From positions 16,244,001-16,308,000 of the forward strand of contig OX597839.1 of NCBI GenBank assembly GCA_951406725.2: a stretch of DNA of 64,000 nucleotides, given 5' to 3'. The stretch is from Octopus vulgaris (Eukaryota). Made by a program: the position numbers and the translations under genes. The first letter of the stretch is position 1, and each line of letters starts with the position of its first letter. The notes beneath the pieces are model-generated. The model was given only the letters and a program-made list of their open reading frames with translations. It did no database searches and was not told the origin of the DNA. This document shows positions 7,070-60,955 of this stretch, piece by piece.

Positions 7070-7140
7070 GGGTGGGCGTGTCGAAACTAAACCGTTGGGA
7101 GATTCACACGAATTATAGGCCAGAGAAAATTATGCAACTA
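7070..7140 (+). promoter_or_regulatory. Putative proximal promoter of gene A (GC box, IRF-like, kappaB-like and C/EBP-like motifs)
   Basis: GGGTGGGCGTG (7070), GAAACTAAAC (7083), GGGAGATTCA (7097), TTATGCAA (7130), 110-180 bp before the 7250 donor; motif matches only. Confidence 0.3.
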
Positions 7141-7250
7141 TTTATTTAGCCTGTGACAAAAATCAAGTGTTAATATCTGAAGAAGGAAGTCTAAAGACAT
7201 CATTGAATTTAATTTTCTTTGTGTTACCGGCTATAAATATCTCCTTTCAG
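7141..7250 (+). other. Gene A putative non-coding exon 1 (start uncertain)
   Basis: Donor AAATATCTCCTTTCAG|GTAAAT resembles gene B AAATATTCTCCTTTTTTAG|GTAAAT at 45866. Confidence 0.5.
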
Positions 7251-58400: not shown

Positions 58401-60955
58401 AGTTAGAAAATCAGGCTCACAATCATGAGGTAGTGAGTTCGATTCCCAGACTGGGCTGTGTGTTGTGTTCTTGAGCAAGACACTTTATTTCATGTTGTTC
58501 CAGTTCGCTCAACTGTAGAAATGAGTTGCAACATCACAGGTGCCAAGCTGTATCGGCCCCTTTGCTTTTCTCTTGGACAACATTGGTGGTGTGTAGAGGG
58601 GGGACTGGTATGCATGGACTTCCAGAAACAACTTTGCCCAGATTCGAGCTTTGGAGGGGAACTTTCTAGATGCAATCTCATGGTCATTCATGACTGAAGG
58701 GGTTCTTTACCCTTTTTTTTTTACCATCAATATATTGGGAAGGAGCTTGACTTAATTCACTATATCAGCCCTTAAAGTTTCAATAAAGAAGTACAGTACA
58801 TTATGATGATGATGGTATCAGTGGCTGTGATGGTGGTGGCTTTGGCAAGGGCAGTGGTGTGACAGAAGCCACAGTCAAACTGACCACCAAACTGACAATA
58901 CCATTTTTAACCCTTTAGCATTTAAACCAGCCATATCCAGCCCAAATATTCAGCCAGTTTTGAGTTCAAGCTGACCCGATCAAGTTTCTCACACCAGATC
59001 AGGTCAGCCGCTCAACAATGTCATTCTAAAAATAAACAACCACATCATCCAAATTAATTCAAAACAGTGTGAACAGATAAGCATTATATTTGAGGGAGAA
59101 GTCTGAATGCTAAAAGGTTAAACTGGCCATATCTGATCCAAAGATTCTACCTGTTTTATGTTCATGCTGACCAACACTGGCTTCTTACACCTAACTCACA
59201 ATGTTGTTCCCAAAATAAACAGTCACATCATTGAAGTAGCAGGGAATCCGAGTCAAACTGTTTTGAATAATACATGTAACTCCCAATAGATATGTTGAGT
59301 GCCCTCTCTCTCATTTGTCCACTCATATATATATATATATATATATATATATATATATACTCTTTACTCTTTTACTCGTTTCAGTCATTTGACTGTGGCC
59401 ACGCTGGAGCACTGCTTTTAGTCGAGCAAATCGACCCTAGGACTTATTCTTTGCAAGCTTAGTACTTATTCTATCAGTCTCTTTTGCCAAACTGCTAAGT
59501 TTCCTAGGAAGAAACCATCCCTTCATGAATTTAACATAAACCTCTAATAAAACTTATATATCAAACTTATATTGATTGCCATAAAAAAAAAAAATCATAT
59601 GTAGAGGGTGTTCAGCAAGAAGTTGGGGAACTCTCATCCCTTGATTACGACAGGAGAGTCCACCACATATATTTATGTGTGGGTGTGTATTGAGGTTATC
59701 TGTTTAGTTTACTCTGTCAAATGCAATTTTTATATATTCAAATAGTTGTAGTTGTTTGTGCTTTATCTTGTAGTTTTAAGATTTCAATTATGTTTACTCA
59801 TTTACTTGTTTCAGTCATTTGACTGTGGCCATGCTAGAGCACCACCTTTAGTCGAGGAAATCGACCCCAGGACTTATTCTTTGTAAGCCTAGTACTTATT
59901 CTATCGGTCTCTTTTGCCGAACCGCTAAGTTACGGGAACGTAAACACACCAGCATCGGTTGTCAAGCGATGTTGGTGGGGACAAACACAACACACACACA
60001 TATATATATATATATATATATATAACGGTCTTCTTTCAGTTTCCATCTCCCAAATCCACTCACAAGGCTTTGGTCGGCCCGAGGCTATAGTAGAAGACAC
60101 TTGCCCAAGGTGCCACGCAGTGGGACTGAACCCGGAACCATGTGGTTCGTAAGCAAGTTACTTACCACACAGCCACTCCTACGCCTATGTTTGTTTATTT
60201 TTAGAATGGTGTCACAGGGTAGATGTGAGTGGCTGGATCTGGTTGTTTTGAACATGAAGCGGGTTGAATATTCGGGCCAGATGTGATTAGTTTAACCCTC
60301 TAGCATTCAAATTACTCGATCAAATATAATGATTATATATTCCCATCGTTTTGAATGAATCATGCATTATCTCATAGCGTTGGCATTTCGACAACATGCT
60401 TGTTTACTTATAGAATGTCATTGAAGGGTAAGTGTGAGAGGCCAGATCTGGCCAGTTTGAACATAAAACGGGAATATCTGGGCTGGATAAGGTCAGTTTG
60501 ACCTCTTAGCATTCAGGTTATTCAGTCAGATAATGCTTATTTATTCATGTTGTTTCAAATTAATCACTCATTATCTTGTAGCTTTGAGATTTTAACAATG
60601 TGATTTTTTTTTTGTATTCTTAAAATGACATTGTAGGGTAGGTGTGAGAAGCTGGATCTAGTTTTCTTGAATGTAAAACAGGTAGAATATTTAGGCCAGG
60701 TGTTACCCATTTAAATGCTAAAAGGCTAATTGTATATTGCAGTCTAATTAATACCCATTGTTTTATATTTCATCTTTTATAGTTTTGCTCCAAACTTGGC
60801 TTGAGTAAGGAAGACAAAGTTCCTGGGAGAGTAGTGGAACGCTTTCTAACAGATAAAAGAAATAAAGTTTATGAAAACTACAGCAATGTGACACCACTTG
60901 ACATCATAAAAGATCCAGATTTTAAGAAGAAAATAAATGGATTTTTCTCACCTGA
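49480..60955 (+). CDS. Gene B: paralog of gene A, long ankyrin-repeat protein, 3' end outside the window; join(49480-49482,52482-52568,55675-57218,58244-58280,60783-60955,...)
   Basis: GT-AG introns with phases 0,0,2,0,2; exon borders match gene A; the spliced frame is open. Confidence 0.82.
49631..50041 (+). mobile_element. Non-autonomous Helitron
   Basis: TC(TA)nAAGCTGAAGTTG...CCCGAGCAACGCCGGG hairpin...CTAG|T. Confidence 0.8.
50368..50565 (-). mobile_element. Penelope pLTR-like short element with a hammerhead-like motif (50457-50492)
   Basis: Minus strand CTTT-CTGTAGA-A-GAGC-agag-GCTC-GAA-ACGT-A-AAAG; abuts (TA)n. Confidence 0.6.
50820..51550 (-). mobile_element. Degraded RTE LINE RT fragment
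   Basis: ORF 50770-51300: MKTGKAPDPSG, QFGF, STTDA, FVDMEKAFDRV. Confidence 0.85.
51630..52390 (-). mobile_element. Tandem SINE family 1 copies (2-3)
   Basis: Repeated GGTGCCATGCAGTGGGAC...CTTACCACACAGCC blocks. Confidence 0.8.
52482..52568 (+). CDS. Gene B N-terminal cap exon (DMAFYKSLCGVMKGDIKYVEQFIAENQQT)
   Basis: ACATTCAG|GAC...ACA|GTAAGT, phase 0; GD...V..FI half-ankyrin pattern runs into INEED of the next exon. Confidence 0.75.
53572..54400 (-). mobile_element. Degraded Tc1/mariner-superfamily transposon
   Basis: Terminus CAGGGTGTTTGGGCTAAATTTGAC; minus-strand NSSSYNPMDYYV remnant of the SPDLNP.D..VW motif near 53810-53850. Confidence 0.55.
54521..54705. repeat. Hairpin with 84-bp arms and a 17-nt loop
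   Basis: 54521-54604 is the reverse complement of 54622-54705 with one mismatch. Confidence 0.92.
54875..55499 (+). mobile_element. CR1/L2-group LINE 3' end with (ATT)n tail
   Basis: LYIAMVRPHLEFASPVWNP...LEAVQRRATK...YSERL...LKLRR...RKHFFTLRV. Confidence 0.88.
55675..57218 (+). CDS. Gene B ankyrin-array exon (1544 nt, 16 TPLH-type repeats)
   Basis: ORF 55660-57222; TTTCAG|ATC acceptor and GG|GTAAGT donor match the gene A exon borders. Confidence 0.95.
56095..56517 (+). repeat. Coding minisatellite: about 4.3 near-identical 99-bp ankyrin units with a 198-bp higher-order period
   Basis: Units start at 56095, 56194, 56293, 56392 and 56491; KNND-TPLH and TNND-TPMH variants alternate. Confidence 0.93.
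57430..57745 (-). mobile_element. SINE family 2
   Basis: ACTCCGTGATGACGAGGGTCCC...CGTGAAATTAACG...TACCCTTAATGCAGTTCTC...CCCTAACCAGTAAGCC. Confidence 0.75.
58244..58280 (+). CDS. Gene B 37-nt exon (GQHYDVVALMLTQ)
   Basis: TTTCAG|G...CAG|GTTAGT; paralogous to 13305-13341. Confidence 0.85.
58380..58712 (+). mobile_element. tRNA-derived SINE (third body type; related to 26110-26350)
   Basis: GAGTTCGATTCCCAGAC B-box...CTTGAGCAAGACACTTTATTTC...GGTCATTCATGACTGAAGGGG. Confidence 0.65.
58907..60725. mobile_element. Mixed repeats: piggyBac-like MITE copies (58907-59240; 60190-60725 tandem) and SINE family 1 (59360-59500; 59795-60187, -)
   Basis: TTAACCCTTTAGC...GCTAAAAGGTTAA termini; SINE sequence matches other copies. 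Confidence 0.65.
60783..60955 (+). CDS. Gene B C-cap exon (FCSKLGLSKEDKVPGRVVERFLTD...VTPLDIIKDPDFKKKING...)
   Basis: TTTTATAG|TTT...CCTGA|GTAAGT, phase 0-2; paralog of 19473-19648. Confidence 0.85.

Follow-up and report, generated by a model that had tools for sequence, protein, structure and literature searches.

What are two neighbouring octopus genes that combine ankyrin repeats with a death domain, and do they belong to a diversifying system of intracellular sensors? This question is raised by the 64,000-nt stretch analysed here (hereafter the window), positions 16,244,001 to 16,308,000 of contig OX597839.1 in the 2.8-Gb Octopus vulgaris genome (G000:C26:16244001-16308000; positions are given on the + strand). 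A sequence-only reading of the window had described two + strand paralogs, here termed genes A and B, and proposed a sensor derived from Mind bomb (MIB) ligases with its recognition surface on one expandable exon. We found that the pair forms the conserved end, including a RING-less form, of a family of about 100 loci. The ankyrin binding face is diversifying in three clustered subfamilies and not in genes A and B, and the exon borders show descent from MIB2. The nearest named database proteins come from Octopus.

Family size and variation of the binding face

Querying the genome with the C-cap exon of gene A gave 109 matches among 132 candidates, 71 of them on two genome contigs (30 on C29 and 41 on C31). 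The last exon of gene A matched at 79 of 123 candidates and a second death-domain query at 133 of the 150 scored, with a union of 137 distinct sites. At 92 of the 109 C-caps, a same-strand death-domain exon follows within 40 kb, versus 14 with one upstream. Removal of MIB2 itself and of nine decayed-array hits on C1 left 99 C-cap loci, and the family comprises about 100 loci; these counts come from single-protein queries, not a profile search, and are therefore lower bounds. The multi-copy, clustered family that had been predicted is thus present, with its large clusters on C29 and C31.

We further examined 63 family regions: 60 of the 109 C-cap sites (30/30 on C29, 20/41 on C31 and 10 others), each taken with 20 kb of surrounding sequence, plus gene A, gene B and a P0006-like gene. 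In 39 of them we delimited the array exon, which measures 155-3011 nt and, on C29, grows in steps of about 102 nt; it is in frame in 34 of these. One 1079-aa frame holds 32 motifs, and a single array exon carries 2 to 32 repeats across paralogs, in agreement with the expandable exon envisaged earlier. Of 47 family arrays examined, 44 are followed by the 37-nt exon. Contrary to the earlier statement that no RING is visible, 53 of the 63 regions have a RING no more than 6 kb from the C-cap, with the full Cys/His ligand pattern in 46 of these 53; gene A has none.

Several loci depart from this architecture. At two places on C29 (L173-L174, 28.48-28.49 Mb; L183-L184, 29.21-29.22 Mb), a short ankyrin exon plus array exon pair is duplicated in tandem, with 6 and 3 and with 6 and 4 repeats, respectively, an arrangement that could allow alternative arrays. 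Elsewhere on C29 (L243-L244, 21.774-21.776 Mb), a 730-aa frame of B-like 33-residue ankyrin repeats closes with a stop codon, and the 20 kb that follow contain no exon for a C-cap, RING or death domain. This array was ruled out as a gene B relative of full architecture and is an ankyrin-only offshoot. Tandem units with death-domain pieces, most of them with stops, occur at C1:216.93-216.97 Mb and C1:102.71-102.73 Mb; those at the former site are about 3.5 kb long, with C-cap pieces fewer than 400 bases upstream of the death-domain pieces. These units are a satellite-like array in decay, made from the 3' end of the family's genes and perhaps derived from a processed copy. Isoform records P0003, P0005 and P0008 alter the output end (last death-domain exon swapped for unrelated sequence, first death-domain exon skipped, RING mostly missing), and P0008, from O. 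bimaculoides, has no complete RING.

A published ankyrin library randomises positions 2, 3, 5, 10, 13 and 33, which constitute its concave binding face (PMC4308713), and DARPins bind through randomised concave positions (PMC8229355). We therefore fitted a codon model (GY) to distinct 34-codon repeats and compared omega at these six library columns with that at the other 28. Omega at the library columns was 5.07 in subfamily C29a (50 repeats), 5.76 in C29b (51) and 4.99 in the long C31 arrays (49), sizes that are rough because recombination can inflate tree-based omega; a value of 1 was rejected in each case (likelihood statistic 2dL = 13.5, 29.2 and 19.3). At the other 28 columns it was 0.52, 1.10 and 0.95, respectively. 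The concentration of variation on the groove columns is a tree-independent result: the same entropy was reached by only 35, 14 and 2 per 100000 random six-column sets in C29a, C29b and the long C31 arrays. A slightly different position set gave omega of 6.7, 3.6 and 9.3 and pairwise ratios of 4.2, 3.7 and 3.7, the latter not being mutually independent. Our conclusions rest on the published set; another set included one position added post hoc.

Repeat parts are also shuffled. The four-gamete test was failed by 312 of 410 distant site pairs versus 25 of 90 near pairs, and hairpin and helix variants recombine. In the short C31-type exon, identity between two sub-clades is 85%, the same as within them, whereas the C-caps are 66% identical between sub-clades and 92-93% within. 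Overall, the ankyrin binding face is diversifying in C29a, C29b and the long C31 arrays; the diversifying selection proposed for the ankyrin surface thus holds for three clustered subfamilies but not for genes A and B, in which omega is below 1, the branches are deep and separate, and gene A is unchanged at the surface in O. sinensis.

The range of the family outside Octopus was addressed by word-seeded protein searches, which gave Octopus family members only (2, 5 and 3 proteins) and cannot show absence, being too insensitive for that given so few hits when this genome alone has about 100 loci. A search of 50%-representative proteins was dominated by long ankyrin proteins, and Atlas matches comprised MIB-like, XBAT-like and ANKDD1 clusters only.

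Relation to MIB2

The genome also holds a true MIB2, with MIB_HERC2, SH3_15, ankyrins and RINGs, at C26:2.51-2.57 Mb (last RING exon, C26:2513801-2513980) and a MIB1 at C13:72.6 Mb. None of the MIB_HERC2 (10) and SH3_15 (18) matches in the genome falls on C29 or C31 or near the window. Borders and phases agree between the family and MIB2 at the donor of exon a, at either end of exon b (149 nt, phases 0/2), and at the exon c acceptor and exon e donor, as well as at exon f (210 nt in MIB2, 213 in the family), the 176-nt C-cap and the first RING donor. Because borders and phases match, the array exon would be MIB2 exon b or its copy, expanded from within; the smallest family array exon measures 155 nt, versus 149 nt for exon b. 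The 37-nt exon is probably a fusion of MIB2 exons c and e. Judged by exon structure, the family descends from the ankyrin-to-first-RING module of MIB2, with loss of the substrate-binding front and the last RING, and the MIB origin suggested earlier is thereby narrowed to MIB2.

A tree built from the 213-nt exon, C-cap and RING, with its root resting on one MIB outgroup and no ANKDD1 sequence included, placed the family in one clade apart from MIB2 (ultrafast bootstrap, UFBoot, 99). Gene A (with both other-species records), gene B and two more genes form early branches, and the C29 and C31 expansions are nested (93). Genes A and B were ruled out as a recent diversifying tandem pair, since they sit on long separate branches and their grouping reaches only 73. 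In a fold search, the MIB1 ankyrin domain (8v0e) was the first natural protein and had the best query TM-score among the matches listed (0.56). Among solved structures, the death domain of gene A is weakly closest to PIDD (E 4e-5), followed by RIPK1, FAS, CRADD and TRADD, and these matches do not identify the donor gene.

Beside the true MIB2, a second MIB2-derived cluster occupies C26:0.73-2.48 Mb (L094-L096, L117-L122), with several genes carrying REP (SH3_15) repeats, ankyrins and RINGs. It gave no MIB_HERC2 match, and the last RING is kept in one gene examined.

Genes A and B in the window

Splicing was read from GT-AG intron skips in assembled contigs of four runs, none of them recorded as RNA and none giving a readout of tissue or level. 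The array, 37-nt and C-cap exons of the two genes share borders and phases as first described, and the 5 and 16 repeats counted in their array exons stand as TPLH-type motifs (Table 1). The earlier exon list missed the 213-nt and 77-nt exons of gene A and the 52452-52568 exon of gene B.

Table 1. Exons of genes A and B and the duplicated segment holding gene A (window positions unless stated otherwise)
Feature	Position	Strand	Details
Segment holding gene A	6333..32175	+	99.4% identical over 25.8 kb to A', which lies 42 kb further upstream
Gene A 5' non-coding exon	7070..7250	+	Donor at 7250 read from sequence; start provisional
Gene A ankyrin array exon	8827..9316	+	Opens at ATG 8877; donor in phase 2; 5 TPLH-type motifs; spliced to 13305 (GT-AG) in 4/4 runs
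Gene A 37-nt exon	13305..13341	+	Second ankyrin-repeat helix; borders resemble those of MIB2 exons c (5') and e (3')
Gene A 213-nt ankyrin exon	15463..15675	+	MIB2 counterpart 210 nt, phases 0/0; lacking in gene B
Gene A C-cap exon	19473..19648	+	176 nt, phases 0/2; same length and phases in MIB2
Gene A linker exon	21866..21942	+	77 nt with a 24-nt duplication; stands where other members have their RING exon, with its phases (2/1)
Gene A death-domain exon 1	23087..23158	+	72 nt, phases 1/1
Gene A death-domain exon 2, coding part	27526..27730	+	Window sequence lacks one A at 27664; intact in 4/4 runs
Gene B likely 5' non-coding exon	45740..45866	+	Donor 45866; start approximate; inferred
Gene B exon 2	52452..52568	+	Start codon ATG 52485; encodes an N-capping helix pair; corresponds to MIB2 exon a; joined directly to 55675 in X1, X5, X6
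Gene B ankyrin array exon	55675..57218	+	1544 nt, 16 motifs, phases 0/2
Gene B 37-nt exon	58244..58280	+	36-letter gap between 57217 and 60781 in contigs, 4/4 runs
Gene B C-cap exon	60783..60955	+	173 nt, diverged
Gene B RING exon (beyond window)	~66138-66283 (extended coordinates, L041)	+	Complete C3HC4, ~2 kb past window end
Gene B death-domain exons (beyond window)	~68144-68215, ~70637-70842 (extended coordinates, L041)	+	Phases match

Gene A is an ankyrin-linker-death domain gene without a RING. Its exons join in frame from ATG 8877 through the exon at 27526 onward, and six GT-AG joints were seen in contigs, five of them in all four runs and the 19648-21866 joint in three. At the 8827 acceptor, contigs continue into sequence from an exon further upstream (up to 297 letters, run X6). 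The codons just after this acceptor are out of frame with the repeats and form a leader; the array exon of gene A therefore does not start with the residues IN, as had been read, and the frame opens at ATG 8877, a start matched by the O. sinensis record of the gene. HWACR recurs in four of the five repeats, close to the pattern described earlier. The death domain reported for gene A was recovered as a Pfam Death match above the cut-off at the C-terminus (5e-10 for P0001, the O. sinensis record). The window sequence lacks an A in a run at 27664, which shifts the frame and alters the last two death-domain helices; the extra A is present at full depth in all four runs and also in the twin copy A'. 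Gene A was accordingly ruled out as a pseudogene.

The O. sinensis record P0001 (406 aa) shares the gene A structure and starts directly at the ankyrins, and the O. bimaculoides record P0002 is identical to it at 176 of 216 residues. In the structure model of P0001 (pLDDT 86), stacked ankyrins are followed by a disordered linker, with pLDDT falling below 50 at residues 290-315, and then by a C-terminal domain made of helices. Gene A orthologs are labelled 'E3 ubiquitin-protein ligase MIB2' in databases. Records P0004 and P0007, possibly from the same genome, were not treated as independent.

Gene B encodes about 753 aa in all. Its death-domain exons, expected past position 64000, were found there (two exons), and its RING has an Arg after the last Cys. 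Contigs extend about 850 letters past 60956, which fits these downstream exons. The possibility that gene B is a conventional MIB ligase ending in RING domains was ruled out, as its C-terminus is a death domain followed by a stop. The residues after TPLH are variable and Cys/His-rich, as stated before, and the repeats at 56085-56517 are recent 99-nt duplicates (91%) within which contigs break. The 213-nt exon is truly absent from gene B, since contigs in all four runs pass from 57217 through 36 letters to 60781. Three of the four differences listed for organism B in the gene B exons are synonymous. Upstream of exon 2, contigs carry 103-132 letters, together with one mismatch that agrees with use of the 45866 donor. 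The shared 5' untranslated donor of the sequence-only reading survives as a modest likeness between the 7250 and 45866 donors, equalled by 4 of 300 random windows (self-overlaps included).

The segment holding gene A differs from A' by 66 substitutions (48 transitions) and 29 indels, and A' is either a young tandem duplicate or a second haplotype. Variants of A' appear as alternatives between runs (at 9015, T in X1 and C in X5 and X6); this, together with O. sinensis isoform records lying on one contig, favours alleles, although contigs drop variants. Nested recent duplications (93-99%), at window 1-4472 and 36076-40874 and at 6333-32175 with its upstream copy, flank genes A and A' and possibly reflect an assembly junction or an uncollapsed haplotype. 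A 1.2-kb (TA)n run lies at 33207-34434, with short inverted copies nearby. One retrotransposon family, which we take to be LINE-type, is represented by fragments at 535-1314, 16814-18699, 29456-31970, 36664-37443 and 50821-51551 (RT-like frames, 75-96% alike), several of them in gene A introns. A broken transposase end-like sequence, presumably hAT-type and read by eye, lies on the minus strand at 62700-63060 inside a gene B intron.

Proposed role and competing explanations

Compared with MIB1 and MIB2, the family keeps the ankyrin tail, C-cap and first RING with MIB2 exon borders and phases, but lacks the MIB-HERC2/ZZ or REP front, the coiled coil and the last catalytic RING, and adds a death domain, an expandable array exon and about 100 copies. 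The first RING after the ankyrins, a MIB trait, occurs in gene B and in 53 of the 63 regions, whereas a linker exon replaces it in gene A. The fungal NLRs Pa_3_8560 and Pa_2_8180 of Podospora have near-identical ankyrin repeats of variable number, with positive selection on the concave face and shuffling (PMC4986451). The three clustered octopus subfamilies resemble them in high repeat identity and concave-face positive selection, whereas genes A and B, the C8 array and, by maximum likelihood (ML), the short C31-type exon do not. The octopus output also differs, being a C-terminal RING and death domain. Neither NACHT nor NB-ARC occurs among or next to the exons modelled: P0001 and P0006, scanned over their whole length with Pfam, gave only Ank, RING and Death, and the exon joints of gene A leave no room for either.

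In domain order, ankyrins then death domain, gene A resembles ANKDD1A and ANKDD1B, its top Atlas look-alikes (0.97-0.98, including a mollusc cluster), but it keeps MIB2 exon borders and the C-cap and belongs to a RING-bearing family. The likeness is therefore probably convergent. A loose parallel exists with the oyster BIR-DD-RING inhibitors of apoptosis (IAPs; BIRC11 type), an expanded molluscan family that likewise combines a recognition module, death domain and RING; IAPs are least expanded in Octopus (PMC8917759). These proteins differ in their BIR recognition, in a RING that stands last and not before the death domain, and in their separate origin. PIDD1 and RIPK1 are the best, though weak, solved-structure matches of the gene A death domain, but the octopus genes contain no LRR, ZU5 or kinase. 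PIDD combines a repeat sensor with a death domain.

Fast diversification of the groove in the clusters makes it likely that the family consists of variable intracellular sensors. With moderate confidence, we read genes A and B as conserved, early-branching members of a bank of cytosolic sensor-adaptors, with the ankyrin groove as the proposed binding site for a variable ligand and the death domain as the part that would carry the signal to death-domain partners. The ligand, probably foreign, would cluster the proteins, and their death domains could then nucleate assembly with PIDD-, RIPK1- or FADD-like partners and trigger caspase or NF-kB signalling, with the RING acting as a scaffold or a reactivated ligase. 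Gene A, with no RING and an invariant groove, and gene B, with a RING and a groove fixed at 16 repeats, would not themselves be the variable sensors but adaptors of fixed specificity, or regulators, in the same pathway. The immune function suggested here is a prediction from sequence. Mammalian MIB2 acts on RIPK1, which it restrains (PMC5912950), and on cFLIP (PMC7815719) in tumour necrosis factor (TNF) death signalling.

A number of observations weigh against this sensor-adaptor reading. Surface omega shows no excess in gene A (0.36) or gene B (0.54). The seven residues that differ between gene A and P0001 among 384 compared include none at a library position, and the five repeats common to both show no surface change. 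Omega in the long C8 array is 1.10, without significant excess, and in the short C31-type exon 1.72 (2dL 2.4), which is not significant by ML (pairwise 2.9 with the post-hoc set). Values near 1 at the non-surface columns of two subfamilies point to relaxed constraint or assembly noise; recombination, as noted, limits how far the groove values can be taken at face value, and 5 of the 39 delimited array exons are out of frame as assembled. As for the RING, an Arg after the last Cys is present in only 22 of the 46 complete RINGs, gene B included, and lacking in 24, as it is in MIB2 RING1 of the same genome. RING3 alone carries the activity of human MIB1, in which RING1 is non-catalytic (bioRxiv 2024.03.01.582834), and cFLIP is ubiquitylated by the second, not the first, RING of MIB2 (PMC7815719).

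These RING data bear on the strongest rival, an unlikely one in our view, in which the family members are substrate-variable E3 ligases. The groove would pick a self or foreign target, the RING would have regained E2 binding, the death domain would only cluster the proteins in place of the MIB coiled-coil/last-RING dimer, and gene A would be a RING-less decoy. The full Cys/His pattern of most RINGs agrees with it, as do the Arg-bearing RINGs, gene B's among them, when set against MIB2 RING1, and dimerisation raises the activity of MIB1 (bioRxiv 2024.03.01.582834). However, the corresponding RING1 is inactive in human MIB1 and dispensable for cFLIP ubiquitylation by MIB2, about half of the complete RINGs lack the Arg, gene A and P0008 have no complete RING, and the death domain is kept at 92 of 109 loci.

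A role of the groove in self recognition or development, such as neuronal or reproductive specificity, instead of defence appears improbable. MIB proteins do work in Notch signalling (bioRxiv 2024.03.01.582834), and genes A and B are conserved and transcribed in several studies; but the MIB ligand-binding front has been lost, and a groove-confined omega of about 5, repeat shuffling and cluster turnover better fit an arms race. Finally, it is very improbable that the family consists largely of neutral debris left by segmental duplication and unequal crossing-over, with apparent selection produced by gene conversion or assembly error: the decayed C1 arrays with their stops, the near-neutral non-surface columns in two sets and the nested duplications around the window speak for it, but in three separate subfamilies the variation is concentrated on columns of a binding face that was defined independently (2-35 per 100000 random sets), most array exons (34 of 39) and RINGs (46 of 53) are intact, and genes A and B are spliced in all four runs, with gene A conserved in records of two other species.

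Returning to the sensor-adaptor reading, we put forward a bolder form of it only tentatively: the family would amount to some 100 germline-encoded, DARPin-like intracellular receptors, made from the middle of a Notch-pathway ligase, varied through a one-exon binding face that grows, shrinks and recombines, and coupled to a death-domain signalling platform, with genes A and B as conserved ancestral adaptors that offer a possible route for the variable members. The groove of the MIB1 ankyrin domain is conserved yet dispensable for Notch (bioRxiv 2024.03.01.582834), and the octopus family offers a use for such an ANK-RING1 module.

The surprise lies in the family itself. No description of an octopus ankyrin-RING-death family appeared in the literature titles and abstract openings searched, a set that covers few subscription journals. 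Intracellular immune recognition in cephalopods is poorly charted, and this family has been hidden under the name 'MIB2' or generic ankyrin names. If the sensor-adaptor reading is true, a NACHT-less ankyrin-RING-death bank would be an animal parallel, reached by another route, to repeat diversification in fungal NLRs, and evolution would be varying the same ankyrin positions that engineers randomise. The family would then also provide named candidates for studies of octopus disease.

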